DNA from: a virus
DNA: 47,987 nucleotides
IMG/VR virus record: IMGVR_UViG_3300038808_000009
Coordinates: 1-47,987 of that record
Strand: one strand, 5' to 3'
This document shows positions 26,542 to 41,158 of the stretch, in pieces. How positions within the stretch are numbered: the stretch's first letter is position 1; each line of letters begins with the position of its first letter. A program made the translations under genes and the position numbers. The notes under the pieces were generated by a model. It did not search any database, was not told where the DNA came from, and worked only from the letters and a program-made list of their open reading frames with translations.

Positions 26542-26551
26542 GGCGGTCCCC

Positions 26552-26851: not shown

Positions 26852-26912
26852 GGCGGCGTTCTCTCATTGCGTCAGATGTGGTTGTAGCGGCACCGTAGCG
26901 CCGCCACAAGTC

Positions 26913-27101
26913 TTATCCTTTCGGATGGTCGACCATCATGCTCCGCTGGTGCGGCCGGACCGGATACTCGGGCGGCGCGCCCACGGTGAACAGCCACCAG
27001 AAGAACAGGCCGTAGAGGGCGATCATGCCGAAGATCGCCCAGAGTATCCCGGAGGCGGGCTTAAGCTTCTCGCCGGCCTCCGGGTCGATATCGGTGTTCA
27101 T
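26913..27101 (-). CDS. small membrane protein (62 aa)
   Basis: ILWAIFGMIALYGLFFWWLF TM helix. ATGA overlap with the upstream gene. Confidence 0.5.
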   Translation of the reverse strand: MNTDIDPEAGEKLKPASGILWAIFGMIALYGLFFWWLFTVGAPPEYPVRPHQRSMMVDHPKG

Positions 27102-27382
27102 GCGAACAGGTTATCCATTCCGAGCGCCTGGCAGTACAGTTCCACGATCGCGTGGAACTCCTGCTGTTCGCTGTGGTCTTGCTTCCGCATCTTGAGGATC
27201 GCCCGCAGAGCTTTGGCGTCGAACCCGCGGCCTTTCAGTTCCGCGAATACCTCTTTGATATCCGACGCGATGCCGGCCTTCTCCTCCTCCAGGCGCTCGA
27301 TCCGCTCCAGGAACGAGCGAAGCTCGTCCGCGGCGATCGAGTTGTCCCCGGGCGTGGCGCCCCCGTCAGCCTTGCGTGCCAT
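27098..27382 (-). CDS. gapR: GapR-family (DUF2312) DNA-binding protein
   Basis: LRSFLERIERLEEEKAGIASDIKEVFAELKGRGFDAKALRAILKMRKQD closely follows the GapR/UPF0335 signature. Confidence 0.85.
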   Translation of the reverse strand: MARKADGGATPGDNSIAADELRSFLERIERLEEEKAGIASDIKEVFAELKGRGFDAKALRAILKMRKQDHSEQQEFHAIVELYCQALGMDNLFA

Positions 27383-27809
27383 TCGCCTTCTCCCTGTTCG
27401 CGGCCCGGGTGCGAGCCGCCTTCTGCGCCGCCTCGCGCCGCTTCGCCCGGCGCTCGGCCTCCAGGCCGTTCTCGATCAGCGCGGCCGACGAGATCGCCTC
27501 GCCGACGCCGGCCTGCGGGATGGGCTCGCTCCGGGGCGCCTCCGGCGTCCAGCAGCGGAGTTGGCCGTTGAGCATCTGGCGGATGCGCCGGGTCTGCTCG
27601 CGCTCGCCCTGGTGGGGCATGTAGCGGCTGCGACCGTAGCCGCGGTAGCGCATGGTCCGGCGGAACGCGGCCGGTGTCCAAACGCGCCCATTCCTGTCGG
27701 TCGGGGCGTCCGGGCCGCCAGCGATGATCTTGCCGAGCGTGGCGACCGCGCCGGCCGCCAGGGTGCCGGCGGCGACGATGCGGGTCATGATGTTCTTCAT
27801 GCGGGACAT
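27366..27809 (-). CDS. hypothetical protein with N-terminal signal/TM segment and basic C-terminus
   Basis: ORF; N-terminal IVAAGTLAAGAVATLG; no family recognised. Confidence 0.5.
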   Translation of the reverse strand: MSRMKNIMTRIVAAGTLAAGAVATLGKIIAGGPDAPTDRNGRVWTPAAFRRTMRYRGYGRSRYMPHQGEREQTRRIRQMLNGQLRCWTPEAPRSEPIPQAGVGEAISSAALIENGLEAERRAKRREAAQKAARTRAANREKANGTQG

Positions 27810-27849
27810 GCTAACCTCTTGTGGCGGATGCTGAAAAACGATTCGCTAT

Positions 27850-27877
27850 GGGGCGCCGCAGACGGCCGCGACGCCCC
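27850..27877 (-). terminator. possible hairpin downstream of the SSB gene
   Basis: Minus strand: GGGGCGTCG...CGGCGCCCC, with a TTTTT run 11-15 nt further on. Atypical spacing. Confidence 0.3.
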
Positions 27878-27884
27878 GGCTTGG

Positions 27885-28493
27885 TCAGTCGAACAGCGCG
27901 GAGGCGCCGTCGCCGCCCTGGGTCTCCTCCGGGGCGTCGCCGGCCTCGTTCTTGAAGAACTGGTCCGGATCGGCCTCGCGCCCGCCCAGCTTCTCGCCGT
28001 CCTTCACCATCTGGCACATGGACAGGCCGATGGAGACGCCCTTGCCGTTCTCGGCGTTATCCCAAGTGTAGGCGTGGATGACGGCGTAGCCGTAGCAGCC
28101 GGAGTAGAGGTCGGTGCCCTCGATAGCGGGCTTGACCTTCTTATTGTAGAGCTTCGGCTGGAGGTTCGAGGCGGTCCGGATGAACCACATCCCCTCCAGT
28201 TCGGGGTACTGTTCCTCGGTCGTCTTGTTCATCCCCTGCGGGCCGTCGCCGTCGAGGATCGGGTTCTTGATCGTGCCCTTTTTCAGGCTCTCCCGGGCCT
28301 TCTCGCCCCACTCGGCGACGGCCGCCTCGATGATCGCCGCCTTGATCTCGGACAGATCGCCGTCCTTCGGGATGATAAGGTTCGCCTCGAACTTGAGCTT
28401 GGTCGGATCCTTTTTATTGGCCCGGGGCTTGAAGACGTTCATCCGCGAGAAACGGACGAGCGGCGAGCGGAAGTCTGCGGTACGCGAGGTCAT
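27885..28493 (-). CDS. ssDNA-binding protein, T7 gp2.5 / Enc34 DUF2815 type, acidic tail ending ALFD
   Basis: SPLVRFSRMNVFKPRANKK...KFEANLIIPKD is DUF2815-like. Sits in the canonical DUF2800-DUF2815-PolA neighbourhood. Confidence 0.8.
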   Translation of the reverse strand: MTSRTADFRSPLVRFSRMNVFKPRANKKDPTKLKFEANLIIPKDGDLSEIKAAIIEAAVAEWGEKARESLKKGTIKNPILDGDGPQGMNKTTEEQYPELEGMWFIRTASNLQPKLYNKKVKPAIEGTDLYSGCYGYAVIHAYTWDNAENGKGVSIGLSMCQMVKDGEKLGGREADPDQFFKNEAGDAPEETQGGDGASALFD

Positions 28494-28504
28494 CTGGTGT
28501 CCTT

Positions 28505-29842
28505 TCAGTCGTCTACGGCGTCAAAGAACGCGTTAGCGGCAGGTTCGTCTTCAACAGGCGTGAAGAACTTGTTCACGGGCGGCTCGATTGCCGGCCGTGT
28601 CGTCTTTTCGACCGAGACTAGACTTGTCCCGGTACGGGGCACCGTCGACAATCCGTCGATCAGCGACCCATGCTTCCCGAGCGCCTTCCGCACCTGTTTG
28701 GGCGTCCGGAGCTTGGGAGCAATCTGGTAGGCGTCCTCTGCGACGCCGAAAAGCTCGCACGTCGCCCTGGCCTGGGCGGCGGCGTCATCGTCGGTCCACT
28801 TCTCCCGGCCGTGGCGCTCGACAAGCTGGTAGCCCGGGATCTCGACGCCGCTCTCGGCCTCCCGCTGTGCCCAGGCGCGGCAGGCGTTGAGCCAGTTCTG
28901 GACCATGTCGGCGTTGTCCAGGACCCGGGCCAACTGTGCGGGGGACAGTTTGTCCGGGCGCAGTTCCGTCTTGAGCACGGCGACGCCGGTCTCCTCGTCC
29001 CGGAAGAACGCCTGCGCCTCCCGCTCGGACTTCTCGGCGAGCGCCGGGCAGAAGCCGGCGGCCGGGCAGAACTGGCAGTGATCGCCGGCCGACAGATAGG
29101 CGGCAACCCAATCCTGGAGGTCCCCGGGATCGCCGGCCGTGGCGCCGCCCTTGTAGTCGATCTCGGCATGGTGGGCACGCTTCCACGCTTCCTTGAGGTC
29201 GGCAGTCCAATCCAGGAGGTCCAGGTAGGAGATCGTCTCGGACCGGATCCGGCCGTCCGGGTGCTCCATCCGCGGCTGGACAATCGTGACCTTGACGTTC
29301 GTGATCGCCTTGCCGGCGAGCGTCAGGACCGAGCCCACTCCGTAGGTCCGTGCTTGCTTGTTCGCCTTCGCCTCGACCCGCACGCCCCGGCCGCCCTTAA
29401 GGTCGACGACCTCGACAAGCTCGTCCACCGGGAAGTACAGAACGGCGTCGGACGTGCCGCCGGCCTCGAACGGCGGCGACAGGCTGGCGAGCGAGAAGTT
29501 CTGTTCCAGCAGACACCCGCCGCCCTGCTCGCAGGCGATAGCAGTCCGCTCGTTCACGTAGTCGATATAGACCTGGGCGGTCTCGGCCAGTTCCTCGTCG
29601 ACCTCGATCTGGTGGGCCTTCGTCTTGACGATACGGCCGATGTACTCGACCGCATCCTGATTGCCCCGGAGACACATCTCCGAGACCTCGTGACAGGCGG
29701 TGCCCCAGGCCGCCGCCTCGCTCTCAACGTCGGCCGCGCCGTGGCGGCCGACGAGCGTCATGGAACCCGGGCACCCCCAGAGGCGTGCCGACGCGCTGGC
29801 GGACCATTTCGCGTGCCCGCGTGAGGAGTGCCCGGCGCCCAT
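28505..29842 (-). CDS. PD-(D/E)XK-type nuclease, DUF2800 family
   Basis: N-terminus GHAKWSASASARLWGCPGS is the DUF2800 hallmark. C-terminus ...NAFFDAVDD. Confidence 0.8.
   Translation of the reverse strand: MGAGHSSRGHAKWSASASARLWGCPGSMTLVGRHGAADVESEAAAWGTACHEVSEMCLRGNQDAVEYIGRIVKTKAHQIEVDEELAETAQVYIDYVNERTAIACEQGGGCLLEQNFSLASLSPPFEAGGTSDAVLYFPVDELVEVVDLKGGRGVRVEAKANKQARTYGVGSVLTLAGKAITNVKVTIVQPRMEHPDGRIRSETISYLDLLDWTADLKEAWKRAHHAEIDYKGGATAGDPGDLQDWVAAYLSAGDHCQFCPAAGFCPALAEKSEREAQAFFRDEETGVAVLKTELRPDKLSPAQLARVLDNADMVQNWLNACRAWAQREAESGVEIPGYQLVERHGREKWTDDDAAAQARATCELFGVAEDAYQIAPKLRTPKQVRKALGKHGSLIDGLSTVPRTGTSLVSVEKTTRPAIEPPVNKFFTPVEDEPAANAFFDAVDD
28943..28955. repeat. perfect GGACA-N3-TGTCC palindrome (GGACAGTTTGTCC)
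   Basis: Read directly; minus-strand codons P-D-K-L-S. Confidence 0.9.
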
Positions 29843-30324
29843 CAGACGGTCTCGCGCTCGAACGGGTTCTGCTCGATAGCCGCCTTCATGGCGTTGTAGG
29901 CGACCTCCAGCTTGTCGGCCGGGACGACCTTGAACGAGGCGAAGCCGATGATCTTCGGACCGTCCTCCAGGGCCGCCGGCATCCCGTAGAGCTTGGCGTA
30001 CTCGCCGCCGACCGCGCGCAGGGTGTCGACCGTGATGGCCGTGGTCTCGGCCGCCTTGCTTTCCTTGGCCTCGTCCGCCTTGTCGGCGGCCTTGGTCTCG
30101 GCGGTCTCGGGCTTGGCGGCCGTCGAGGCGTCCGCGGCCTTGGCGGCGGCCTTGGCCTTGGCGGTCGTCTTGGCGGGCTCGGCCTTCGGCGTCTCGGGCT
30201 CGGCCGGCGCGGCGGCCGGCAGGGTCACGACCCCGATCGTGCCGAGCAGGGCCGCGGACAGGGCCCGCAGATCGGCCAGGGTGGTGGCGGCGTCGTCGCC
30301 GAAGATCTCGATCTTGATGCTCAT
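29842..30324 (-). CDS. hypothetical protein with central Ala/Lys/Pro-rich low-complexity linker
   Basis: ORF with ATGA junctions on both sides. Contains AKTTAKAKAAAKAADAS..., a histone H1-like composition. Confidence 0.55.
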   Translation of the reverse strand: MSIKIEIFGDDAATTLADLRALSAALLGTIGVVTLPAAAPAEPETPKAEPAKTTAKAKAAAKAADASTAAKPETAETKAADKADEAKESKAAETTAITVDTLRAVGGEYAKLYGMPAALEDGPKIIGFASFKVVPADKLEVAYNAMKAAIEQNPFERETV

Positions 30325-31616
30325 TGTAAAACCTCAGCTATGGATGCGACTTTGCGCGTTAACACCGCAGTAACAGCCTCGTCTATCGAGCCCGCCAGAG
30401 CGGCTACTCTCACTAACACCCGGCCAGTCTGACCGAAGTTAGTGACCCGGAGCGCGGCCTGTTTCATATCCTTCGGAGTAAACGAACTCTCGACGAAGAT
30501 CAGGTCGCGGGAAAGGCTTAGGTCGATCGCCTCGCCGGCCGCGAGCATCTGCCCGAGGAAGACTTGGCTTCGATTAGTCTGGAAAGTCTCGACGGCTATA
30601 CCACGCTTTGCGGCGGGTGTGCGGCCGTCGAGGATGACCGGGTTGTACTTGTGCAGCAACTTCGCGAGCGTGTCTATCGCTTCGGTGTGCCAACACATCA
30701 GGACGACCCGGTCCATCTTGCCGTCTTCGATCTCCTCTTTCACGACGTCGGCGACGGCGTGGGCCTTGGCTACGGCGGTCACGCGGCGCAGCGTGCCCAG
30801 GTGGTGTTCGAGCGCGGCCGTGTCGCCGGTCTCGACGGCGTCCAGGATCTCGTCGGCCTCCGGGAGATGCGCGAGCGCGTCGCGGAGGGCCTTCGCCGCC
30901 ATGGCGCTCGGATCGAGGGCCAGGACGGAGTAGATGGGCTCGGTAATCCCGACGTCTTGCTGCGTCCTACGAAGCCACAAACCGTCGAGCCGCTGCTTTA
31001 GTTCCTGCTCGTTCTTACCGCGCAAGACGATTTTCTTCATCTCGCCCGCGACCCACTTACGCTTATAGACAGCGTACCGCTCGAAATACTGATCGTAGGT
31101 CATATCCGCGACGACGTGCGGCGCGAATGCTTTCAGCATGGCGTACAGATCTACCGGACTATTCGGCATAGGCGTGCCGGATAGAAGGAACTGCTGCTGC
31201 GCCGACATGCCGATCTGAATGGCCGCGACCGTCCTCTGCGCCGTGATCGACTTCCCGTAGTGGAACTCGTCGAGGATGCAGAGTTCGGCGCCCCAGGCGA
31301 TCAGGTGTTGCTTCTGGCACGGGTCGATAATCGTGCTCCAGGCGACGACCGCAACGTCCGTGTCCGGAGCGATACGGTCCTTCGACGAGAACAAGACCTG
31401 GACCTTCCGCGGGAACGCCTGCCACTCCCGGAAGTCTCGTCCGAAGTTGGCCCGGTTCGAGGCGGTCGTGACGACGAGGATCTTCCGGTAGAGGCAGAGG
31501 TCCGCCCCGATGATCGAGGCGCCTGTTTTTCCGACCCTTGGCTGATCTGCAAGTATAAGACCGCCCTTCGCAAGCCAAAGCCCGCCCTCTACTTGATGCG
31601 GCTTAGGTGTAATCAT
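30321..31616 (-). CDS. SNF2/DEAD-like helicase
   Basis: LADQPRVGKTG (Walker A), ILDEFHYGKS (DExH), C-terminal helicase lobe ...VFLGQMLAAGEAIDLS. Confidence 0.85.
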   Translation of the reverse strand: MITPKPHQVEGGLWLAKGGLILADQPRVGKTGASIIGADLCLYRKILVVTTASNRANFGRDFREWQAFPRKVQVLFSSKDRIAPDTDVAVVAWSTIIDPCQKQHLIAWGAELCILDEFHYGKSITAQRTVAAIQIGMSAQQQFLLSGTPMPNSPVDLYAMLKAFAPHVVADMTYDQYFERYAVYKRKWVAGEMKKIVLRGKNEQELKQRLDGLWLRRTQQDVGITEPIYSVLALDPSAMAAKALRDALAHLPEADEILDAVETGDTAALEHHLGTLRRVTAVAKAHAVADVVKEEIEDGKMDRVVLMCWHTEAIDTLAKLLHKYNPVILDGRTPAAKRGIAVETFQTNRSQVFLGQMLAAGEAIDLSLSRDLIFVESSFTPKDMKQAALRVTNFGQTGRVLVRVAALAGSIDEAVTAVLTRKVASIAEVLQ

Positions 31617-32119
31617 CGGCCGACCCCGCGAACTACTTCAAGTCCGCTCGGTTTGGTCCAGTTCCGTCCGTTCAATACATTCCAGATCGCGCGCTGCGAC
31701 ACGCCGTACAGGTCGGCGATATCGCGTTGCTTGGTGACGCCCGGCACGTAGCCGGCTCGGATCGCAACAGCCGCCTCGTCCGAGAGCTTGGCTTGGGTCT
31801 GAGCGGTGCCGCGGCGACGTTGAACGGTCGCCCGCGAGCGCGCCCACATGTCGTCCACGTTCTCCTGCGTCGACCCCGCCGCGAGATGCGAGGGCTCGAC
31901 GCAGGCCGGGGTGTCGCAGCGGTGCCGCACGTCCTGATCGTCGGCGACCGACACGCCGGAGGCGCGCAGCGCGAACCTATGCGCTTTCTCCAGGCGCTCG
32001 CCGTTCCAGAACACGCCATAGCCGTGCTCGTTGCAGCCGCCGAACCAGAGCTTGCACCCCGAGTTGGGCTCGGGAATGCACTTCGCCTCGAAACGGGCAA
32101 TGCGGTCCGCGGAGATCAT
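31613..32119 (-). CDS. HNH endonuclease with C-terminal HTH (free-standing, homing-type)
   Basis: GYGVFWNGERLEKAHRFA...HRCDTPACVEPSHLAAGSTQENVDDM, then QRDIADLYGVSQRAIWNVL. Confidence 0.8.
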   Translation of the reverse strand: MISADRIARFEAKCIPEPNSGCKLWFGGCNEHGYGVFWNGERLEKAHRFALRASGVSVADDQDVRHRCDTPACVEPSHLAAGSTQENVDDMWARSRATVQRRRGTAQTQAKLSDEAAVAIRAGYVPGVTKQRDIADLYGVSQRAIWNVLNGRNWTKPSGLEVVRGVGR

Positions 32120-33033
32120 CAGCGGCGCGTGAGGACGAGCGAGCCGACGACGAGGCCCAGGCCGGCGAGCAGCGAACCGAGCAGGGCCGGCGCGAGGCGG
32201 GCCTTGAGCGACTTACCCCCTGCGGGCACGAGTAGGACTGTCGGCATACCGTCCTCGACGAACACTGAGACCAGATCGACCTTTATGACCTGTTCCGAAT
32301 ACGGCCCATCCGGGAGGGCGTCAAGACGTTTTGTCCGCTCCTCCAGATCGAGCCGCCGCGCCTCGTCCGTCCGGCGGGCGATCCCCGCCAGGGCGTCGAT
32401 ATCCTCCGGGGAGAACAGCGGCTCCGGTCCGGGGGACTTATCCTTGTCCCGGGCGACCCGATCCTCCGCGACGGCCCGCCGGCAAGCCGCCTCGATCAGC
32501 CGGAGGACGGGCCCGCGCTGCGCCTCCGTCAGGCCGCAAAGCGCCGGGCTGTTCGGATCGACCCGGCGAGCGCCGGACTGGAGCTTCACGTCCGAGCAGC
32601 CCTGCATCTCCCAGGGCAGAGCGCGGCTGTCGACGCCGTAGCCGGCCGCCAGGATCGCTGCGCCTTCCTCCGCGAGTTCCGACCGCTCGGCGCGCGAGAG
32701 CGTCCTGCGGGCCCATTCTCCGGCAGGCTCGCGCATCATGTCGGCCACGGCCGTGTAGATATCGCCGGTCTGGTGCTCGGCCTCGATCCGCGTCGCGTCG
32801 ATCTCGTCGTGGGCGGCGCGAACGCCCGCCAGCATCGCCTTCCTGCCGGCCTCCGTTCCTTCCCGAAGCTCCCGCATGACCCGGAAGCCTTCGGCCTGTA
32901 TCTCGTCGATAGCGGCAGGGACGGACAAAGTGTCCGGCGGGCAGTGGCACGTCTCGCCGGTCTGCATCCCGCAGTCGCAGGGGCGCGGGGCCTCAGTCGA
33001 AAAGGCCGGGTCGGTCTCGTTCTTCGTCGTCAT
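32119..33033 (-). CDS. hypothetical protein with C-terminal membrane anchor
   Basis: ORF trimmed to ATG 33033, which has GAGGAG 10 nt upstream. C-terminus APALLGSLLAGLGLVVGSLVL. Overlaps the RuvC tail-coding region by 41 nt. Confidence 0.55.
   Translation of the reverse strand: MTTKNETDPAFSTEAPRPCDCGMQTGETCHCPPDTLSVPAAIDEIQAEGFRVMRELREGTEAGRKAMLAGVRAAHDEIDATRIEAEHQTGDIYTAVADMMREPAGEWARRTLSRAERSELAEEGAAILAAGYGVDSRALPWEMQGCSDVKLQSGARRVDPNSPALCGLTEAQRGPVLRLIEAACRRAVAEDRVARDKDKSPGPEPLFSPEDIDALAGIARRTDEARRLDLEERTKRLDALPDGPYSEQVIKVDLVSVFVEDGMPTVLLVPAGGKSLKARLAPALLGSLLAGLGLVVGSLVLTRR
32923..32935. repeat. perfect GGACA-N3-TGTCC palindrome (GGACAAAGTGTCC)
   Basis: Read directly; minus-strand codons P-D-T-L-S. 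Confidence 0.9.
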
Positions 33034-33502
33034 GGCGGTCTCGCTCCTCAAGTCTGCCGTATTCGGCGATCAGCGCGGCTTCCGAGAAGTCGGGGCGGCG
33101 CTTCCTGAACTCTGCGGCCAGGGCGGGGAACCGCCGCATAGCCTCGATCCTGGCGTCATCCTTGCCGCCCTTGATCCGCAGAGCTTTCTTCCACCTAGTC
33201 GGCGGCACCCGCAGGAGCCGCACGCCCAGGCCCATCAGCAGGTATTCCGGCGCGCCGGCCGCCCTGCCGAAGTTGAAGGCGGACGAGGCCGATTGGCCCT
33301 CGATCCCGCCGACCTGTTCGAGGTAGGCCACGTCCGGCCGTAGCTCCCGCAGGAGCGCCAACAGGGCCCACCCGTCGATCTCGTCCTTATCGGACCGCCC
33401 GCGGCGGACGGACAGGCTCGGCATGTCGTGGATCGAGCAGGCGTGCCCCTCCACGAGCGCGAGCGCGCCGGCCGCCCCCGGGTCGATCCCGAGCACCCTC
33501 AC
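32993..33502 (-). CDS. ruvC: RuvC-like Holliday junction resolvase ending in GLFD
   Basis: VRVLGIDPG (first catalytic Asp), AYLEQVGG, DFSEAALIAEYG. The GTG 33502 overlaps the upstream TGA (GTGA). Confidence 0.78.
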   Translation of the reverse strand: MRVLGIDPGAAGALALVEGHACSIHDMPSLSVRRGRSDKDEIDGWALLALLRELRPDVAYLEQVGGIEGQSASSAFNFGRAAGAPEYLLMGLGVRLLRVPPTRWKKALRIKGGKDDARIEAMRRFPALAAEFRKRRPDFSEAALIAEYGRLEERDRHDDEERDRPGLFD

Positions 33503-33723
33503 CGGACGATGAACGGCGTGACCGAGATGGGCCCGCCGTTGTCCAGTTCGAGCACCCCGAGCAGGATGGGGAACCACGACCCGGGGATGGCGCCTCTACG
33601 GAACCATTTCGACGCCGTGTCCAGCAGCGGCGGCTCGAACCCGTAGGCGGCGATCAGGTGGCACATCTCGGCATGGCCGCCGAAGTAGGCGCCCAGGAAC
33701 TTCACGTCGTCGAACTTTGCCAT
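33499..33723 (-). CDS. Cro/YdaS-like small DNA-binding protein (putative)
   Basis: 74 aa, first gene of the leftward operon. ...ASKWFRRGAIPGSWFPILL resembles YdaS/Cro-type HTH proteins. GGAGG RBS. Confidence 0.4.
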   Translation of the reverse strand: MAKFDDVKFLGAYFGGHAEMCHLIAAYGFEPPLLDTASKWFRRGAIPGSWFPILLGVLELDNGGPISVTPFIVR

Positions 33724-33742
33724 AGCGGCCTCCGTCTCGGCC

Positions 33743-33815
33743 TACATGCCGGACAAAACGTCCGGCGTCAATCGGTTCCCCGGGGCTTGCGCGGAACTTT
33801 TGTCCGGGCTATGCC
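33743..33815. promoter_or_regulatory. divergent promoter pair with an operator-like site filling each 17-bp spacer
   Basis: Leftward: TTGACG (33771..33766), 17 nt, CATGTA (33748..33743), with GGACAAAACGTCC at 33751..33763. Rightward: TTGCGC (33787..33792), 17 nt, TATGCC (33810..33815), with GGAACTTTTGTCC at 33793..33805. Confidence 0.55.
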
Positions 33816-33847
33816 TTGTTAGTTCGCATCGTGACGAGGAAAACGCC

Positions 33848-34093
33848 ATGACCCAGATCGACACCGAAGCCTTCACCGAAGATGCGCAGTTCGCGCTCTC
33901 CCGGTTCCGCCAGACGCTCACGCACCTGGAGAACGTCCTGGAGGCGGTCAGCCACGTCCTGCCGACCAACCGGAAGGCCGGGCTCAACATGCTCGACGAC
34001 ACGATCAACTACGCCCGGCAGATCCACGCCCAGATGGCGGCGATCCGCTCGGCCGAGACCCTTGTCCAGCAGCGGAAGGACGCCGGCCTGTGA
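33848..34093 (+). CDS. small helical hypothetical protein upstream of the integrase
   Basis: ATG 33848 preceded by GAGGAAAA; overlaps the int start (GTGA). Confidence 0.5.
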   Translation: MTQIDTEAFTEDAQFALSRFRQTLTHLENVLEAVSHVLPTNRKAGLNMLDDTINYARQIHAQMAAIRSAETLVQQRKDAGL

Positions 34094-35121
34094 GCACCCC
34101 CTTCATCAAGCGCGACGCCGGCTCCGGCCGCTGGCACATCTTCTGGCAGGAGGGCGGCAAGACCCGCAAGCGGTCGACCGGCACCGTCGACCGGCGCGAG
34201 GCCGAGAAGGCGCTCGGGCGCTTCCTGCTCGACGACCGGCCGGCGGCCGAGAAGGGCGAGGCGAGCAAGCCGGCCGCCACGGTCGCCCAGATCTGGCCCG
34301 CCTACGCCCTGTCGCTCCGCGGGACGCCGACCCACGTCCGGCTGCAATCGGTATGGGCCCGCCTGGAGCCCGCGTTCGGCGAGACGCCTGTCGTTAGTCT
34401 CGCGCAGGACGATCTCGACGGCTACGTGGCCGCCCGGACCCGGCACGGCGCCGGCCTGGGGACCGCGCGCCTCGAACTGGTGAAGCTCCAGGCGGCGATC
34501 AATCGCGCCGTCCTCGACCGGGTGCTCGACAAGGCCGACCGGCCGCGCCTCGTCATCCCGAGCGCCCCGGAGCCGCACGACCGTTGGCTGTCCCGGGAGG
34601 AAGCCGGCCGGCTCCTGGCGGCCTGCGCGCAGCAGCGGGAGGCGGACGGCCGCATGTCGAGGTCCGAGCGGTTCGTCTGGATCGCGCTCGGGACCGGCGC
34701 CCGGCGGCGCGCTATCGAGACCTTGACCTGGGATCAGGTCGATTTCGAGACAGGCGTGATCCACTTCAAGCCGGACGGGATCGCCCAAACCACGAAGCGC
34801 CGGCCGAGCGTGCCCATTTCCAAGGCCCTGCGCGAGACCCTGGAGGTCGCCTACGCGCAGCGGGGCGCCGGCAACGCCTACGTCCTCGACGGCACCCGGG
34901 AGGTCTACAGCAAGGTCGTCCGGGCCGCCTCCCTGGCCGGCGTGCGGGACGTGACGCCCCACGTCCTGCGCCACACCGCGGCGACCTGGATGGCGCGCAA
35001 GGGCGTGCCGATCTGGAGGATCGCCGGGATCCTGGGCAACACGGTCGCCGTGACCGAGGCCGTCTACGCGAAACACTGCCCGGACGATCAGCGGGCGGCC
35101 GTCGAAACCCTGTTCTCGTGA
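34090..35121 (+). CDS. int: tyrosine integrase
   Basis: C-terminal catalytic box HVLRHTAATWMARKGVPIWRIAGILGNTVAVTEAVYAKH, upstream ...ALGTGARRRAIETLTW (Arg I). Confidence 0.9.
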   Translation: MSTPFIKRDAGSGRWHIFWQEGGKTRKRSTGTVDRREAEKALGRFLLDDRPAAEKGEASKPAATVAQIWPAYALSLRGTPTHVRLQSVWARLEPAFGETPVVSLAQDDLDGYVAARTRHGAGLGTARLELVKLQAAINRAVLDRVLDKADRPRLVIPSAPEPHDRWLSREEAGRLLAACAQQREADGRMSRSERFVWIALGTGARRRAIETLTWDQVDFETGVIHFKPDGIAQTTKRRPSVPISKALRETLEVAYAQRGAGNAYVLDGTREVYSKVVRAASLAGVRDVTPHVLRHTAATWMARKGVPIWRIAGILGNTVAVTEAVYAKHCPDDQRAAVETLFS

Positions 35122-35129
35122 GGTCCGCC

Positions 35130-35399
35130 ATGCAAGTCGATTGGATACCGCGCTCGCGACACTACAGTCAGCGGGTCCACGCTTATATCGACCATCCGCC
35201 TTACGCCACGTTCAAGTCCAGTATAGGGCGGCTGCGCGTGACCTGGATGTATGAGCGATGGTTCAAGGTCCAGGTTAACTGGCGAGACGAATACTGGCCG
35301 CGTGGCTTCCTCGTCGACGCCTACGAACTCTCCCAGATCCTCCACTACTGCGGCGCGGTGCAGAACCCGCGCCGCAGGAAGCCCGAGACTACGCCATAG
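35130..35399 (+). CDS. hypothetical protein (89 aa), lower GC
   Basis: ATG 35130 within ORF 34584..35399. Trp/Tyr-rich; no family recognised. Confidence 0.45.
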   Translation: MQVDWIPRSRHYSQRVHAYIDHPPYATFKSSIGRLRVTWMYERWFKVQVNWRDEYWPRGFLVDAYELSQILHYCGAVQNPRRRKPETTP

Positions 35400-37200
35400 G
35401 CTTGATGAGGTAGATCCGGGCCGACGCGCTGTCCGGGGCGGATGGGTTCTGGAACGTCGGATACATGACGAACCGGATCTGCTGCCCGACTACGAGCCGC
35501 CGAATGTTAATGTTCTGGAAGGTGTACCGAGTAACGCTCGGCCGCCAGTCCCACTTGAAGTAGTTTCCGTCTTGCTCGGCCACGTCCAGACCGAACCCGA
35601 ACTCGAACGACCCGCTACTGTCCCGCCAACGCAGCGCCGCAGCGCAGTAGTATAGCCCGGTCTCCGGGACGTTATACCAGAAGTTCGTGCTGTCCCATAG
35701 GTTCTCGGTGTCCGAGACCTTAGTGCCCATACCGAGCTTGTAGAACCCGTTAACTGGATTGACCCAACCGGCACCATTCCCGGAGATGTCGACGAAGTGC
35801 GCGCCCGGCAGGCCGGCGCCGAAGAACTTTACCATCTTCTGTCGGTTGAGCCGGCCCTGCGCGCGGTTGCCACCTGCGAGGCTGTAGTCGGACAGGACCG
35901 CGCCGAGGTCGGTCCCATCGACCGACGACTTCATGATCGCTTCGGCGTTGCCGTCCGCGTTCGTGTCGGAGCCCCAGCCGAACGAGACGGTGTTACCGCC
36001 CTGGCCGGGCCCGGTGCCCTGCTGGACGGGCGTGAAGCCGTAGGAGCCCGCCGGCCCCGTGGCGCCGGTATCGCCCTTCGGGCCCTGGGCGCCCGTGTCG
36101 CCCTTGTCCCCCTTCACGCCCTGAATGCCCTGGATACCCTGGGCGCCCGTGTCGCCCTTGGCGCCGGCCGCCCCCGTGTCGCCCTTGACGCCCTGGATAC
36201 CCTGATCGCCCTTCGGCCCCTGGATACCCTGGGCGCCGGCCGCGCCCGTGTCGCCCTTCGGCCCCTGGATACCCTGGATACCCTGGGCGCCGGCCGCGCC
36301 CGTGTCGCCCTTGGGGCCCTGAATGCCCGGGTCGCCCTGATCGCCCTTGGCGCCGGCCGCGCCCGTGTCGCCCTTCGCGCCGGCAGGCCCGGCCGGGCCC
36401 TGAATGCCCTGCGGCCCGCGGATCTGGCCGACGTTGACGAACCCGTTGGCCGGACCGGCATAGGCGTAGCCGTCACCCGCGTTGAAGCCGGCGCCCGAGG
36501 TCGTGACGATGTAGGTGTCCCCGGCCGTGTTGCCGGCCGCCGGGAGGTCGGCAGGAGTGGGCACGCTCCCCTTGATGACGACGCCGGCACCCTGCGGCCC
36601 CTGCGGGCCCTGATCGCCGGTATCGCCCTTGTCGCCCTTGGCGCCGGGCGCGCCTTGGGCGCCCGTGTCGCCCTTGACGCCCTGGATCCCCTGATCGCCC
36701 TTGGCGCCGGTCACGCCCTGGATCCCCTGATCGCCCTTGGCGCCGGTCGCGCCCGTGTCGCCCTTGTCGCCCTTGGGCCCCTGGAGCCCGGTATCGCCCT
36801 TGGCGCCCTGCGGCCCCGTATCGCCCTGCGCGCCGCGCGAGCCGGTGTTCCCCTGCGGGCCCACATCCCCCTTCGGCCCCTGGGCGCCAGGATCGCCCTT
36901 GTCGCCCTTCGCGCCCGTCGAGCCGGTATTGCCTCGATCCCCTTTGTCGCCCTTGGGCCCCTGGACGCCCTGATCGCCCTTGTCCCCCTTGTCGCCCTTC
37001 TGACCCTTGAGCGTCGCGAGCCATTCGACGACCGAGCCTGCGAACCCCTGCTGGACCGCGAGGTCATAGGCGGACACCGCCATGTCGAACACGGCCTGCG
37101 CCAGGGCGTCGAGTTCCTTATCGACCTCCTGGCCGGGGAGCGGCCGGTTCGGATTGTTGGCCTGGAAGCCGGAGAAGCTGTATTCGCGCCTGTACGCCAT
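35389..37200 (-). CDS. collagen-like (Gly-X-Y) tail fibre with a C1q/TNF-like globular C-terminal domain (putative)
   Basis: Two long GXY tracts (GDKGDKGDQGVQGPKGDKGDRG... and GPQGIQGPAGPAGAKGDTG...). N-terminus shares F-x-F...PG..LD..LD with the fibre at 2919. C-terminus ...PETGLYYCAAALRW...IRFVMY. Confidence 0.85.
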   Translation of the reverse strand: MAYRREYSFSGFQANNPNRPLPGQEVDKELDALAQAVFDMAVSAYDLAVQQGFAGSVVEWLATLKGQKGDKGDKGDQGVQGPKGDKGDRGNTGSTGAKGDKGDPGAQGPKGDVGPQGNTGSRGAQGDTGPQGAKGDTGLQGPKGDKGDTGATGAKGDQGIQGVTGAKGDQGIQGVKGDTGAQGAPGAKGDKGDTGDQGPQGPQGAGVVIKGSVPTPADLPAAGNTAGDTYIVTTSGAGFNAGDGYAYAGPANGFVNVGQIRGPQGIQGPAGPAGAKGDTGAAGAKGDQGDPGIQGPKGDTGAAGAQGIQGIQGPKGDTGAAGAQGIQGPKGDQGIQGVKGDTGAAGAKGDTGAQGIQGIQGVKGDKGDTGAQGPKGDTGATGPAGSYGFTPVQQGTGPGQGGNTVSFGWGSDTNADGNAEAIMKSSVDGTDLGAVLSDYSLAGGNRAQGRLNRQKMVKFFGAGLPGAHFVDISGNGAGWVNPVNGFYKLGMGTKVSDTENLWDSTNFWYNVPETGLYYCAAALRWRDSSGSFEFGFGLDVAEQDGNYFKWDWRPSVTRYTFQNINIRRLVVGQQIRFVMYPTFQNPSAPDSASARIYLIKPMA

Positions 37201-37284
37201 GGCGACCTCGCAAGAGAAAGGGCCCGCCGGTCGCCCGGCGAGCCCTCCCTATAGCCTACCGCCCCGAGGGGCGACAGACCCGCC

Positions 37285-38868
37285 TTAGATCGCGATGTTG
37301 CCGCCGCCGTCCGTGACCGCACCGGCCAGGATCAGGCCGCCGCCCGTCTTGCGGACGTGGTGGGCCATGACGCCGCCGCCACCGCCCGCGTTGAACACCG
37401 CGGCAGAACCGGCCGCGAAGCCCATGCAGTCGATATCGTGAGCGTTGACGATCGTAGTCCCGGCAGCAGCCGCGACGCCGAAGATGCCCGCGCCAGTATC
37501 CGGGCCGTAAGCCTGCGCCAGGTGGATCATCTCGATATCGTGGACGTCGATCTGGGTGCTTCCGTTTAGCAGGACGAAGCCTTGCTTGAACGGCGAGCCC
37601 GCGTCGATATACATCTCGATATCGGAGATGCGGAACTGCGCGATGCTGTCCAACTGGACCGCGACCTTCGCGCAGTTGATGTGGCCGCCCTTGAGCGAGT
37701 GGCCGGGGCACTGGTAGCCGGACGCCGAGTAGCGAAGGCCGGTCTGGACGCCGTAGGCGACGAGATCGGTGACGGAGATGCCCTCGATCTGCTGATTGCC
37801 GCCGACGCCGTTGCCGCCCTCGATCACGATGCCCGTGTCCACGCCCGCCACGGTCACGCCGTAGACCGAACTATCGCCGACCGAAGCCTGGATCGCCTGA
37901 TGTTCCGAGAAGATCAGGATGCCAGTGCCCTTGGTGCCGAAGCTCTCGTTCGAGTAAGACACGACGTCCACGCCGTTGATCCGGCCGTGCTGACCGTTCT
38001 GGTAGGCGAGGAAGTTCTGCGGCCGAGCGTCGGGACGCCCCTCGAACGACACATCCGTGACGAACAACTTGCCGGGCGATGCCGGGTTGCTGTTGCCGCG
38101 CATGTAGATCACGGACCCGTCGCCGATATCCGGGCACGCCGAGACGATCGCCCGGAAGCCCTCGATCTTGGACGCGAACATGTTGAGGATCAGACCGTTG
38201 TGGATCCCCGCGCCGGACCAAATCAGACGGCTCTCGGTATCGGCGCCGTACATCTTGATCGCCGCCGTGGTGCTCTCGAACTGGAGCGTCTCGTTGAGGT
38301 TGAACGACCCGCCCGGGAGGACGAAGGCGCCACCGCCGGCATTGATGAGGTCAGCACCGGCCGCCCGGAACGCCGCGACGTTCTGCGCGGGCGCAGCGTT
38401 CTCGTCGGCGCCGTAGTCGCGCGGGTTGAACTTCCGCTCGCGGAAGTTGATCGCCTTGGAGATCGCAACCTCGTCGAAACCGCCCGTGCCGCCGCCCGTG
38501 CCGGGATCGCCCTTGTCGCCCTTCGGACCGGGAGGACCCTGCGGACCGGGAACGCCCTGCGGGCCGGGGGTGCCAGCGCCACCGCTGCCGGGAAGCGGAT
38601 GCGCCGCGGACGGGATGCGATCCCAGGCGTACCAGTTGCCGTCCTGGCGCAGACGACGCCAGGAGAGCGGGAGGTCGTTCGTGGGGTTGAGTTCGGTCGC
38701 GACCTGCATGACGAAGGTCGGGCCGTAGCCCCAGGTCTCGACGTCCACGTAGAGCCACTGCGTGCGGGCGCCGGGCGGATGATTACCGGCGTCCGGGACG
38801 ACGTACTGCCCGGTGTCCGTGACGCCGTTCAAGTCCGTAAACTGCGGGAGTGTTTGGTTCGTGGGCAT
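37285..38868 (-). CDS. tailspike/depolymerase with pectate-lyase-type beta-helix and a short collagen-like segment
   Basis: FNPRDYGADENAAPAQNVAAFRAAGADLINAGGGAFVLPGGSF (Pectate_lyase_3-like entry motif). GTPGPQGVPGPQGPPGPKGDKGDPG. Start set at ATG 38868. Confidence 0.72.
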   Translation of the reverse strand: MPTNQTLPQFTDLNGVTDTGQYVVPDAGNHPPGARTQWLYVDVETWGYGPTFVMQVATELNPTNDLPLSWRRLRQDGNWYAWDRIPSAAHPLPGSGGAGTPGPQGVPGPQGPPGPKGDKGDPGTGGGTGGFDEVAISKAINFRERKFNPRDYGADENAAPAQNVAAFRAAGADLINAGGGAFVLPGGSFNLNETLQFESTTAAIKMYGADTESRLIWSGAGIHNGLILNMFASKIEGFRAIVSACPDIGDGSVIYMRGNSNPASPGKLFVTDVSFEGRPDARPQNFLAYQNGQHGRINGVDVVSYSNESFGTKGTGILIFSEHQAIQASVGDSSVYGVTVAGVDTGIVIEGGNGVGGNQQIEGISVTDLVAYGVQTGLRYSASGYQCPGHSLKGGHINCAKVAVQLDSIAQFRISDIEMYIDAGSPFKQGFVLLNGSTQIDVHDIEMIHLAQAYGPDTGAGIFGVAAAAGTTIVNAHDIDCMGFAAGSAAVFNAGGGGGVMAHHVRKTGGGLILAGAVTDGGGNIAI

Positions 38869-39000
38869 GTTGCACTTTCGGTTACTGTGAACCGCGCGCA
38901 ACATCTGCCGTGAACATTGCCGGCTAAAGCGGGCAAGGGGACGCGGCGATGCTGTGGCGGCCCGATGACCCTGGCATGATCCGAGTGGGCACGCAAGGGC

Positions 39001-39029
39001 TTGACGGCCTGTTCATCGGTGTGCATATT
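39001..39029 (+). promoter_or_regulatory. sigma-70-like promoter of the RHH/primase operon
   Basis: TTGACG (39001..39006), 17 nt, CATATT (39024..39029). Extended -35 CTTGACGGCC is shared with the promoter at 47057. Confidence 0.5.
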
Positions 39030-39065
39030 GGCGCCGTTACCAACCGTACCGACTAGGAGACCGAC

Positions 39066-39257
39066 ATGGCTGCCCCCAAGGCCCGACAGGCGAAAGCCAA
39101 GACCGGCGCCTCGACCCTCACCCGCGCCTCGATCCACATGGACGCCGCGCTCCTGAAAAAGCTCGACGGCCTCGCCGACCTGGAGGGCCTGTCGCGCTCC
39201 GCGGTCATCACGCGCTTCGTCAAGGCGGGGCTCCAGGCCGCGGGCAAGACGAAGTGA
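39066..39257 (+). CDS. ribbon-helix-helix (CopG/Arc/MetJ-type) DNA-binding protein
   Basis: TRASIHMDAALLKKLDGLADLEGLSRSAVITRFVKAGL fits a beta-alpha-alpha RHH. TAGGAGA RBS. Confidence 0.72.
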   Translation: MAAPKARQAKAKTGASTLTRASIHMDAALLKKLDGLADLEGLSRSAVITRFVKAGLQAAGKTK

Positions 39258-39448
39258 CCGGCGCGTTCGAACACTTCGTCGGCGCCGTCCTGATGGCCGC
39301 GCTCGCTATCGCCGCTTGCCGTGAAGGCGAGGCCAACCTAAAGCATTACGTCGACCACGCAGGTATTCGCTACCTGTTCAGCGGTTGGGGGTATTGGCTT
39401 CTCGGTATCCTGATCGGTTATCTCGCACTCAAGATCCTGGTGACATGA
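39254..39448 (+). CDS. small membrane protein (64 aa, two TM segments)
   Basis: FVGAVLMAALAIAA and YWLLGILIGYLALKILV. GTGA and ATGA junctions with its neighbours. Confidence 0.5.
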   Translation: MTGAFEHFVGAVLMAALAIAACREGEANLKHYVDHAGIRYLFSGWGYWLLGILIGYLALKILVT

Positions 39449-39807
39449 TGGCACTACAGCCCCGATCCCTCGACGAGGCGCGGATCATGTATCCGGCGCT
39501 CCAGTTCTACATCACTGCCCAGGACGCGGGCGGCGAAGTCACGCTCGAACTGATCGAGCCCAACACCGACGACGACCCGGAGACGGCCGGGCAGTCCTAC
39601 TCGTGCTCGGCGCCGACCGAGCGCGAGTGCTGGGAGAAGGCGTTCCCGCCCGTCGACCTGGAGAGCGTTCCGGAGGCCGAGCGGTTCGCCAGCGCCGAAG
39701 GCACGCGAGCCCATGCCGAGGCCGCGGTCTCGTTCCCCGAGCCTGACGAAGTGCCGGCCGACGAGCCGCCACTGGAGGACCCGGCCGTGCCGGGCCTGTT
39801 CGACTGA
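39445..39807 (+). CDS. acidic hypothetical protein ending in GLFD
   Basis: ATG 39445 overlaps the upstream stop. C-terminus ...EPPLEDPAVPGLFD. Confidence 0.6.
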   Translation: MMALQPRSLDEARIMYPALQFYITAQDAGGEVTLELIEPNTDDDPETAGQSYSCSAPTERECWEKAFPPVDLESVPEAERFASAEGTRAHAEAAVSFPEPDEVPADEPPLEDPAVPGLFD

Positions 39808-40346
39808 TGGAGACCTTCGACACGCACGAACTGGCATGGTGCGCCGGGTTCTTCGACGGCGAGGGCTCGACGTGCCTACAGCGCAAGGGCGGCTGGCGCG
39901 AGCTATGGGTCCAAGTGCCTCAGTCCGAGCTATCGACGCTCGAACGCTTCCAGCGCGCAGTCGGCGGTCGTGGCAAGATCGGCGGCCCCTGGCAACCGAA
40001 GTACGCCGGCAGTAAGCCGACGTATAGACTAGACTTCCGAGGCTACCGCGAGGCGCAGTTCGTCCTCGCTCTGCTGTGGCGGTTCCTGTCCGAGCCGAAG
40101 CGCCAGCAAGCCACGGTGTGCCTCGTCGAGGCCGCCGCCTACTTCAAAGAACGAGCCGCCTACGCGCGCAAGGGCCCTTCCAAGCTCACGCTCGCGCAGG
40201 CCGCAGAGATCCGCGCGGCGCGAGATCAGGCCAGGATCGGCCGACAGCGCGTTCCGCGGAATTGGGTCGTTCAGGTTGCCGACCTGTACGGCGTTTCCAC
40301 TCACTGCATCGCCACGGTGCTATCAGGTAGAGGCCACATCCAATGA
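39807..40346 (+). CDS. LAGLIDADG-type homing endonuclease with C-terminal HTH
   Basis: ELAWCAGFFDGEGST motif. C-terminus VQVADLYGVSTHCIATVLSG. TGATG junction with the upstream gene. Confidence 0.72.
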   Translation: METFDTHELAWCAGFFDGEGSTCLQRKGGWRELWVQVPQSELSTLERFQRAVGGRGKIGGPWQPKYAGSKPTYRLDFRGYREAQFVLALLWRFLSEPKRQQATVCLVEAAAYFKERAAYARKGPSKLTLAQAAEIRAARDQARIGRQRVPRNWVVQVADLYGVSTHCIATVLSGRGHIQ

Positions 40347-41158
40347 CCGATAAGACGTTCCGTCCGACACTTCTTTGTGACTTTGACGGAGTAATCAATT
40401 CGTACTCGTCCGGCTGGCAGGGTATCGCCAACTTGCCGGACCCGCCCGTGCCGGGCGCCGCCGCGTTCCTCATCAACGCGTCCAAGTATTTCGACGTGGC
40501 GGTCTACTCCTCCCGCAGCCGCGATCCGGCCGCTATCGAGGCGATGCGCGAGTACATCCGCGTCGCGATCTACCAAGAGTTCTCCGAAGAACTGAAAGAG
40601 GAGACCGCGAGCGGCCTGTCCTACGAACTGATCGAGCAGTTCGACTTCCCGACCGAGAAGCCGGCCGCGTTCCTGACGCTCGACGACCGTTGCCTCACCT
40701 TCACCGGCACGTTCCCCGATCCGAAGGCGCTCCGGGAGTTCAGGCCGTGGAACAAGGTCTCGGACGCGGACCGGAAGATCGAGCGCGATCAGACGATCCT
40801 CCTGCTCGGGGACACGCCGGTCGGGAACGACGCCATGGACGACACGCCGATCAGCCTGCGCAACATCCTCGACGCCGGGTTCAAGAGCTTCGGTTGGGAG
40901 AACCCGAGCACCGTGACGGACGAGGCAATCGGCCGGCTGATCGACGAGCTTCCGCACGAGATGCGGGCACGCGCGGCCTTCATCCTGGGCGAGACGGTCT
41001 CGAACATCATCGCCGACGAGAAGGAACTGATCCGGCAGGCCGAAGCCCTGCCCGATCCACAACGCTCGCTCCTGTCGTCGAGCGAGCGCGAGAGCATCGC
41101 CCTGGCGAAGCGGCTGGCCCGAGCCCTGGGCGGTCGCTACGTCGGCAACCGGCGGTAA
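40343..41158 (+). CDS. HAD-superfamily phosphatase-like protein with an extra C-terminal domain
   Basis: Motif I LLCDFDGVINSY, motif II VAVYSSRS, motif III/IV KPAAFLTLDDRCL. Confidence 0.68.
   Translation: MTDKTFRPTLLCDFDGVINSYSSGWQGIANLPDPPVPGAAAFLINASKYFDVAVYSSRSRDPAAIEAMREYIRVAIYQEFSEELKEETASGLSYELIEQFDFPTEKPAAFLTLDDRCLTFTGTFPDPKALREFRPWNKVSDADRKIERDQTILLLGDTPVGNDAMDDTPISLRNILDAGFKSFGWENPSTVTDEAIGRLIDELPHEMRARAAFILGETVSNIIADEKELIRQAEALPDPQRSLLSSSERESIALAKRLARALGGRYVGNRR

Follow-up and report, generated by a model that had tools for sequence, protein, structure and literature searches.

The viral genome IMGVR_UViG_3300038808_000009 (47,987 nucleotides; this whole stretch is called the window below) carries a control region between two divergent genes, at positions 33724-33847. 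With slightly better than even confidence, we read this region as a lysis/lysogeny switch in which two operators, O_L and O_R, would be bound by a regulator of 74 amino acids (aa), and in which the operator would have multiplied to about 28 copies across the genome as the repressor CI was lost.

The region is bounded by the ATG of the 74-aa open reading frame (ORF) on the minus strand and the ATG of an 81-aa ORF on the plus strand. An earlier reading made from the letters alone (the sequence-only reading) had placed two promoters here, each with a variant of a 13-bp motif in its spacer, and every 13-mer, hexamer and coordinate that it had given for the gap was present in the sequence. The leftward promoter, P_L, has the -35 hexamer TTGACG at 33766-33771 (minus strand, read 33771-33766) and the putative -10 hexamer CATGTA at 33743-33748 (minus strand, read 33748-33743), in the order TTGACG-cc-13-mer-gg-CATGTA. 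The operator O_L, GGACAAAACGTCC (33751-33763), lies wholly inside the 17-bp spacer of P_L and, at 23.4 bits, is the best motif site of the genome. The rightward promoter, P_R, was read from the window sequence as a putative -35 hexamer TTGCGC (33787-33792, plus strand) and a weak putative -10 hexamer TATGCC (33810-33815, plus strand), in the order TTGCGC-13-mer-gggc-TATGCC; its 17-bp spacer also encloses a whole 13-mer, O_R, GGAACTTTTGTCC (33793-33805, one arm mismatch, 17.7 bits), upstream of the operon of the 81-aa gene and the integrase gene. P_L was also found by a regex scan. P_R was missed by a consensus scan with Escherichia coli sigma-70 criteria, which called no promoter at all in 33000-35000. 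The hexamer TTGACG is the -35 of a few other promoter-like sites ahead of operons in the window. One, TTGACG-N17-CATATT (39001-39029, plus strand), stands upstream of a gene for a ribbon-helix-helix (RHH) protein and of the primase operon, and its -10 resembles the CATGTA of P_L; another, TTGACG-N17-TATCGT (47057-47085, plus strand), follows just after the gene at 46561-47049, which from our own reading of the sequence we take to encode the small terminase (terS). The spacers of both are without an operator, and these two promoters may be constitutive or under other regulation.

The leftward promoter and its operator were found again in relatives, which are given here by locus numbers. A 940-bp contig (L005), 77% identical to the window at the DNA level, keeps both operators and both -35 elements, with 12 bp deleted between the two promoters. 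Its O_R is identical to that of the window, its O_L is a perfect palindrome, GGACAAAATGTCC, and its P_R has an improved -35 in the same place (TTGACC) and TACAGC as the -10. The sister phage (L137/L139, from a 47.8-kb contig of a sibling sample) encodes a family protein 46% identical to the 74-aa protein and keeps the gene order of the window: integrase, 82-aa gene, control region, 75-aa gene, resolvase and SNF2. Its P_L reads TTGACG-ac-GGACCTGATGTCC-gc-CATGTA, with both hexamers the same as in the window; its equivalent of O_R is GGACATCGCGTCC, accompanied by a loosely matching -35 (TTGAGG, offset by 3) and no conserved -10. In L144, the leftward site is TTGACG-cc-GGACTTTTTGTCC. When the window, L005, L139 and L144 were aligned (their 74-aa homologues are 42-81% identical), TTGACG.CGGAC.T..TGTCCG.CA was invariant; the -10 hexamer of P_L was CATGTA in L139, CATCTG in L005 and CAGTGT in L144.

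The same arrangement was present in further loci with other spacings and copy numbers: TTGACT-gt-GGACGATTTGTCt and a second site in L140; TTGACA-g-GGACAAGATGTCC-g-GGACAAGATGTCC, the operator twice, in L141; TTGACG-cggc-AGACAAAATGTCC together with AGACATTTTGTCT in L145; TTGACAAGATGTCC in L143; and, in the cultured Rhizobium phage RHph_N65, AGACATTTTGTCC together with TTGACA-c-GGACAAAATGGCC-gat-TACAAG. A TTGAC -35 stood at or overlapped the palindrome in 9 of 10 loci, RHph_N65 included. The sole locus without the motif was L146, where the family gene is not the first of its operon. Because neutral non-coding DNA would be randomised at 35-46% protein identity, the -35 element with an operator in or at its spacer reads as a genuine phylogenetic footprint across distant phages. 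This behaviour, with P_L and its operator conserved among phages, fits the earlier proposal that the 13-mers are operators embedded in promoters. The proposed back-to-back pair fared unevenly: the leftward promoter is conserved in relatives, but the hexamers of the rightward promoter are conserved only in part and its -10 not at all. The centres of O_L and O_R are indeed 42 bp apart in the window, a distance that had been equated with four helical turns, but the corresponding spacing is 37 bp in L139, 30 bp in both L005 and RHph_N65, 23 bp in L140 and 14 bp in L141. With spacing so variable in six phages (14-42 bp), four helical turns do not form a conserved constraint, and the helical-phase hypothesis was ruled out.

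The operators are copies of cGGACA-www-TGTCCg, the most over-represented gapped palindrome of the window genome. In a survey of all 4-mer arms with gaps of 0-9, GACA-N3-TGTC (12 vs. 0.61 expected) and GGAC-N5-GTCC (15 vs. 1.9) ranked at the top and CGGA-N7-TCCG (12 vs. 2.3) ranked fourth, and the three are facets of one motif. Against 100 dinucleotide shuffles, the 15 exact copies of GGAC-N5-GTCC compared with 1.84 ± 1.48 expected and a shuffle maximum of 6. A symmetric position weight matrix (PWM), with a cut-off of at least 12 bits, returned 28 sites in 47.9 kb compared with about 1.0 in shuffles; O_L was its top match, which upholds the link drawn earlier between the switch and a genome-wide palindrome. 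Eight of the 28 sites were non-coding (7% expected, p = 5e-4) and 20 were in coding sequence. When sites no more than 60 bp from a gene start were counted with the non-coding ones, the fraction was 13 of 28 (18% expected, p = 5e-4), leaving 15 deep in genes, more than 60 bp from any gene start. Since the intragenic sites fall in all three reading frames and encode unrelated peptides, the constraint acts on DNA, and a protein-motif artefact was ruled out. The longest stretch without sites, 33806-40352, spans the integrase operon and the tail-fibre genes. An 8-bp palindrome, CGATATCG, was the third most over-represented palindrome in the window (13 vs. 1.9 expected).

Dispersal of the motif was confined to part of this group of phages. 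The sister phage had 13 copies in 20 kb compared with 0.91 expected, a count that no shuffle reached. The motif centre is G/C-tolerant in L139 and A/T-rich in the window, and only one or two intragenic positions are common to the two phages. With so few positions common to both sisters, density and not position appears to be maintained, and selection appears to act on the density of sites. RHph_N65, a CI-bearing phage with a complete 48.7-kb genome, showed no excess (2 vs. 0.94), with 7 PWM matches, 2 of them at the switch; L140 and L141 showed no motif enrichment either. In the window and L139, the two phages in which this was measurable, proliferation of the operator goes together with the substitution of the 81-aa gene for CI. 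A tie to the integrase lineage was ruled out, as none of the integrase relatives L126-L136 (29-43% identity) carries the motif. An exact-pattern scan of viral contigs for CCGGACANNNTGTCCGG was discarded as well: its matches were almost all single and of the kind expected by chance, and the multi-copy loci were unrelated, that in L070 being a low-GC tandem repeat inside a coding region. Three loci of the integrase group, L133, L134 and L135 (integrases 33-34% identical, 51-53% G+C), have a palindrome of their own, (C)GTTTAAAC(G), at 10 copies vs. 0.3 expected in 16.8 kb, and this lineage may also have a dispersed palindromic site.

The 74-aa gene (33499-33723, minus strand) is the first gene of the leftward early/replication operon. 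An exhaustive HMMER search recovered 183 relatives of its protein; word-indexed protein searches with the 74-aa, 81-aa and RHH proteins had recovered one relative each. In an alignment of 67 members, the family signature was FD..FL...YG..P...KWF.RG.IP..W..LL..LE..G.PVS, with K39, W40 and R43 invariant. A divergent HTH_3/HTH_31 protein of 140-162 aa faces the family gene in L140, L143, L145 and RHph_N65, and wherever the contig reaches far enough the integrase adjoins this gene pair. In RHph_N65, the family protein is gp16 (QIG74328), the CI-like protein is gp15 (QIG74327), and the two operator sites are at 14372 and 14402. The four CI-like proteins are homologous to one another (32-62% identity). 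Standing opposite HTH_3 CI-like repressors, the family gene therefore holds the place of cro in a lambda-type switch. The label "cro-like" that it had been given thus holds for its position, opposite a CI-like repressor in four relatives, but drew no significant fold or HMM match. The 74-aa family is also the only gene common to all operator-carrying loci, and it is proposed as the binder because no other gene always accompanies the operator. The sequence-only reading had recognised no CI-like repressor and had named no binding protein; we likewise found no CI homologue in the window, but co-occurrence narrows the candidate binder to the 74-aa family.

Profile comparisons pointed in the same direction below the level of significance. 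The best matches of the family profile in the PDB were the Cro structures 3bd1 and 5w8y (E 1-2, non-significant), aligned over ..A.s.W.aRGrvP, and P22 Cro matched the family profile with an hhalign probability of 4.7%; in these sub-threshold alignments, the conserved ..KW..RG.IP falls on the helix-turn-helix (HTH) of 3bd1, 5w8y and P22 Cro. Scanning the 67 members against Pfam at E ≤ 0.1 gave 14 weak matches to HTH families (HTH_48, 7; HTH_17, 3; Phage_CI_repr, 2; MerR, 1; DUF4817, 1), which were counted per family and may come from fewer than 14 distinct members. The NCBIfam model NF046037, "carph-isopro", matched the window protein at 23.1 bits (E 6.4e-5), below its curated cut-off of 38 bits, and matched 63 of the 67 members at E ≤ 0.1 (best E 1.8e-7). 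The name of this model is functionally uninformative, and a literature search returned no paper on "carph-isopro" and nothing relevant on RHph_N65 or rhizobiophage operators. An AF2 model of the 74-aa protein, built from a two-sequence alignment, had four helices with a pLDDT of 72, and a Foldseek search with it against the PDB and BFVD gave nothing significant. Single-protein sequence searches of the PDB matched only ankyrin and gp41 and were set aside as spurious. From the position, co-occurrence and conserved stretch of the family, we infer that the 74-aa protein is a divergent Cro-type HTH protein, a candidate binder of the operator that would autoregulate P_L.

On the other side of the control region, the 81-aa gene (33848-34093, plus strand) takes the position held by CI in the relatives, is co-oriented with the integrase gene and overlaps its start. 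Its orthologues in L005 and L139 are 59% and 57% identical; like the window, the sister phage and a close relative carry this gene and no CI homologue. The gene is absent from L140, L141, L143, L145 and RHph_N65. The 81-aa protein is net acidic by residue count and had no Pfam or PHROG match; AF2 predicted a two-helix antiparallel hairpin (pLDDT 85) whose structural matches were generic coiled coils only. When the CI proteins of the four relatives were searched by tblastn against the window and 20 kb of L139, no match was significant, and the best (E 0.037) was in an unrelated region. The 81-aa protein ends in ...QQRKDAGL and the integrase in ...AAVETLFS; by our reading, neither end is like an ssrA-type ...LAA tag.

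In the mechanism that we propose, a dimer of the 74-aa regulator would bind cGGACA-www-TGTCCg. O_L would fill the space between the -35 and -10 of the early promoter P_L, which would drive the 74-aa gene and the recombination and replication genes, and O_R would sit on the core of the weaker P_R, which would serve the 81-aa gene and the integrase; a regulator on either operator would keep RNA polymerase out. In the relatives, the operators would be shared by the family protein and the CI-like repressor encoded across the switch, and in the clade of the window and L139 the CI gene would have been replaced by the 81-aa helical-hairpin gene. The dispersed sites could then silence lytic operons as roadblocks to transcription, in the manner of stoperators, or as a sink that links the regulator to genome copy number. 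About half of the sites are deep in genes and their positions are mostly not kept between the sisters, so it is site density that would be selected. That the CI-less clade, with its array of about 30 mostly intragenic sites, arrived independently at stoperator-like silencing or at copy-number titration through the 74-aa protein, possibly with the 81-aa protein as a partner, is a tentative extension that we lean against.

Several points weigh against the proposed switch. The 74-aa protein had no significant match to an HTH family or fold in Pfam, PHROGs, NCBIfam, the PDB or Foldseek searches; it is slightly acidic by residue count, and AF2 modelled it with moderate confidence only. Judged by the E. 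coli consensus, both -10 hexamers are poor; P_R is loosely conserved, and the operator is offset in P_R in a way unlike that in P_L. The operator is unusually conserved for family proteins that are only 35-46% identical, which a conserved host factor would also fit. A lytic Cro that bound at least 14 sites in the late operon would be expected to hinder late genes, and the dispersed sites would fit a lysogenic repressor better. The phage itself is known solely as an uncultured metagenomic contig, with all evidence drawn from sequence.

The late-operon sites are the reason for keeping as the main rival a reading in which another phage-encoded lysogenic repressor, the 81-aa protein or the RHH protein, binds the palindrome and silences the prophage while the 74-aa protein is only a Cro with a possible share in the sites; we consider this unlikely, though it deserves serious weight. 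Dispersed sites in lytic operons would make more sense for a maintenance repressor, and the 81-aa gene takes the place of CI in exactly the phages that show the genome-wide spread, the window and L139. However, the 81-aa protein is predicted to be a plain antiparallel coiled coil, is net acidic and matches no DNA-binding fold, and five loci (L140, L141, L143, L145 and RHph_N65) keep the operator without the gene. The RHH protein (63 aa, 39066-39257, plus strand, with the promoter-like site described above upstream) matches Pfam RHH_1 (1.5e-5) and a PHROG annotated as "transcriptional repressor" and is strongly basic by our residue count, and short pseudo-palindromes within promoters are known targets of other RHH proteins, Arc and CopG among them. 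Set against this, the promoter-like site of its gene (39001-39029) has no operator, and word-indexed searches found a relative of the protein in the close relative L147 alone.

Improbable, in our judgement, is a reading in which the palindrome is the target of a conserved transcription factor of the alphaproteobacterial host, so that the phages would have tied their switch to one of its regulons. Phages whose switch proteins have drifted to 35-46% identity, and whose partner genes differ, still keep the half-site (A/G)GACA...TGTCC, and phage immunity specificities usually diverge faster than this. On the other hand, we know of no alphaproteobacterial regulator with such a box (the LexA, CtrA, FixK, RirA and Irr boxes differ); the stretch with which the 74-aa family may recognise DNA hardly varies, which would account for the conserved operator without a host factor; and the motif centre is A/T-rich in the window and unconstrained in the sister phage, alongside changes in the helix of the family protein. 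That the palindromes are RNA hairpins or terminators, or sites of packaging, partition or recombination, is very improbable: some copies can form hairpins of 6-7 bp, the copy at 47019 is followed by a short T-run, that at 47254 is listed as terminator-like and phage N15 reportedly has dispersed palindromic centromere sites, but the arm sequence is conserved beyond pairing alone, most copies lack a T-tract, terminator-like matches are at background (7 vs. 6.2, on which the terminator and hairpin reading was ruled out), no ParA/ParB-type gene was found among the window proteins scanned, and the set place that the palindrome keeps between the -35 and the -10 of many phages is what marks an operator.

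The proposed 74-aa switch resembles the CI/Cro switch of phage lambda in several respects. A divergent control region stands between a small first early gene and the lysogeny/integration side, and palindromic operators of 13-17 bp overlap the promoter cores, here inside 17-bp spacers; in the relatives (RHph_N65, L140, L143 and L145), an HTH_3 CI-like repressor also faces the 74-aa homologue. Unlike lambda, both the window and L139 lack a CI homologue and carry the gene for a predicted coiled coil of 81 aa in its place, the switch has only two operators, at variable spacing, with about 26 more copies elsewhere, and no known Cro or HTH family significantly matches the protein in the Cro position. 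Functionally, the system reads as a lambda-type switch that lacks the defining CI protein.

Mycobacteriophage BPs (Cluster G), which has an integration-dependent immunity switch, shares the gene order of integrase, small gene, control region and divergent cro-type gene (PMC4557955). The O_R of BPs is a 12-bp palindrome, CGACATATGTCG, with a similar half-site, located between the -35 and -10 of the lytic promoter, and further copies of the palindrome occur in small intergenic gaps elsewhere in its genome. These extra sites number about 4 and are all intergenic in BPs, compared with about 26 in the window that are mostly intragenic. BPs encodes an HTH repressor that has a degradation tag and attP within its gene, whereas the 81-aa protein is a predicted hairpin that ends in ...KDAGL; the ssrA-like C-terminal tags of Clusters G, I, N and P are absent from both the 81-aa protein and the integrase.

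Cluster A mycobacteriophages (L5, Bxb1, TipsytheTRex) have stoperators, 20-30 copies of a 13-bp repressor site, which are proposed to block elongation through lytic operons (PMC9283540, PMC6550527). The likeness lies in more than 20 genome-wide sites, 28 in the window, with an operator at the early lytic promoter besides. A stoperator is an asymmetric site that a two-domain monomer binds; its orientation follows transcription, and its place is a short intergenic gap. The window sites are instead two-fold symmetric (GGACA-N3-TGTCC), more than half of them are deep in coding sequence, and their positions turn over between sisters. No repressor of the L5 gp71 type turned up in Pfam and PHROG scans of about 40 window proteins, with no direct comparison made. 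Because its sites are symmetric, mostly intragenic and orientation-independent, the window system does not appear to be a member of the stoperator family. In the Streptomyces phage phiC31, about 18 inverted-repeat repressor sites are dispersed (summarised in PMC4557955), again in a high-GC temperate phage genome. The phiC31 repressor differs: it is a large protein with several isoforms, and its gene lies 3' of the structural genes. In the window, phiC31 was matched only by a collagen-like repeat in a tail-fibre gene. By analogy, the nearest described architectures are the BPs switch and the dispersed sites of L5/Bxb1 and phiC31.

The comparison matters in that a conserved promoter/operator design, TTGAC-nn-GGACA-N3-TGTCC, is here tied to some 180 small proteins, a family absent from Pfam and PHROGs and covered solely by an uninformative NCBIfam model ("carph-isopro") that it matches below the cut-off. 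To our knowledge, the immunity switches of alphaproteobacterial phages are poorly known, and dispersed repressor sites have so far been studied essentially in actinobacteriophages (L5/Bxb1, phiC31 and BPs) only. At least one phage in culture, RHph_N65, has a member of the family, which makes the prediction directly testable, and the operator at 2-7 copies in RHph_N65 vs. about 28 in the window forms a natural experiment. If the reading is true, symmetric, intragenic sites with fast turnover would tell how general a solution genome-wide silencing or titration is, and a compact repressor/operator pair would become available for genetic tools in high-GC Alphaproteobacteria.

Outside the control region, several of the sites lie in gaps between genes. 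A pair stands just ahead of terS, where the late operon starts: GGACAACTTGTCT at 46500-46512 (19.0 bits) and GGACATAAGTTCC at 46526-46538 (18.5 bits), the latter 29 bp upstream of the terS ATG (46561). The site GGACATTCTGTCC (47254-47266, 20.2 bits) is non-coding and upstream of gene 47448; GGACATATTGTCG (10014-10026, 19.0 bits) occupies the short gap from the gene at 7703-9997 to a scaffold-like gene and lies within TTGCCC-N17-TATCGC; and a site of 14.0 bits (7587-7599) is in another non-coding gap. The O_R 13-mer recurs as its exact reverse complement, GGACAAAAGTTCC, at 44138-44150, as had been pointed out earlier; this copy is in the non-coding origin region, about 100 bp past the iteron array described below, and is conserved with its flanks at position 7363 of L147. 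A resemblance of O_R (TTGCGCGGAAC) to the iteron (TGCGCGGTTCT) was dismissed as probably coincidental, L005 having TTGACCGGAAC at the place, so that the likeness is not conserved.

Some sites lie at or near gene boundaries. The site at 5903-5915 is 36 bp upstream of the next gene start (5945), that at 40353-40365 (13.0 bits) is at the junction of the genes at 39807-40346 and 40343-41158, and that at 47779-47791 is at the junction of the genes at 47448-47777 and 47774-47944. The site at 22815-22827, 32 bp before the junction of a 1206-aa gene with the next gene, matches position 7620 of L139 and is the only intragenic position clearly common to the window and the sister phage. The site at 43776-43788, 39 bp before the end of the primase/helicase gene, is in the same position in L147 (7049) and RHph_N65 (34892), and that at 47019-47031 is 24 bp before the terS stop and is followed by the promoter-like site at 47057-47085. 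In the early block, 32923-32935 is 38 bp into a 282-aa gene, just past the RuvC-like gene, and the same 282-aa gene holds a second site (32324-32336); others are inside the genes for the SNF2 helicase (31430-31442, 13.5 bits), the DUF2800 nuclease (28943-28955) and the DNA polymerase (25202-25214). The primase/helicase gene holds a further site at 41922-41934, and one of 12.4 bits (44715-44727) is near the 3' end of a 343-aa gene. The remaining intragenic sites are at 3587-3599, 4831-4843, 8466-8478, 9484-9496 (13.3 bits), 14176-14188, 18208-18220 and 21729-21741.

The window is JGI metagenome contig Ga0418684_00205 in its entirety. Its two ends share an exact 55-bp overlap, giving a circular assembly of about 47.9 kb with 67.5% G+C, and the window reads as the complete, circularly assembled genome of a temperate tailed phage. 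The phage probably infects one of the Alphaproteobacteria, possibly a Rhizobium-like host, because a GapR-like gene and one cultured relative, Rhizobium phage RHph_N65, were found; the GapR-like gene presumably points to such a host, given where GapR occurs. The late/structural block is on the plus strand and runs from the small-terminase-like gene (46561-47049) through the contig junction to 23536. The early block is on the minus strand, from 33723 down to 23533, and starts with the 74-aa gene; library matches identified in it a RuvC-like resolvase, an HNH endonuclease, an SNF2 helicase, a DUF2800 nuclease, an Enc34-type single-stranded DNA-binding protein (SSB), a GapR-like protein and a family-A DNA polymerase. 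The GapR-like DNA-binding protein (27098-27382, minus strand; PF10073, 7.8e-31) is kept in the sister phage, L141 and L146. The 81-aa gene is followed by the tyrosine integrase gene (34090-35121, plus strand; Pfam Phage_integrase PF00589, 6e-18). Directly 3' of the primase/helicase gene (41473-43821, plus strand), about 11 copies of the iteron TGCGCGGTTCT form an array at 43830-44040, which is likely the replication origin.

With respect to the structural genes, the module of integrase, 81-aa gene/74-aa gene and replication genes has opposite orientations in the two sisters (window 23533-35121, L139 8628-19902), and in the sister phage the integrase adjoins the end of the structural block. Directly 3' of the integrase gene, an 89-aa ORF (35131-35399, plus strand) was by eye lower in G+C than its surroundings and may be a moron that fills the place where attP might be expected. 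A 71-aa protein (85-300, plus strand) gave a weak match to the Acb2/Tad1 hairpin domain (E 7e-4; 20.2 bits, under the cut-off of 27), which is that of an anti-CBASS/anti-Thoeris sponge. Seven window proteins have a common C-terminal peptide, [G/A]-L-F-D. On the plus strand, these are a 120-aa protein (39445-39807), the primase/helicase (41473-43821) and the small terminase (46561-47049), and on the minus strand the SSB (27885-28493), the RuvC-like resolvase (32991-33494) and two small proteins (26552-26851 and 26248-26601). RHph_N65 has five similar [GSD][IL]F[DE] C-termini, that of its primase included. The common end looks like a docking tail, perhaps of the clamp- or SSB-tip-like kind, on replication, recombination and packaging proteins.

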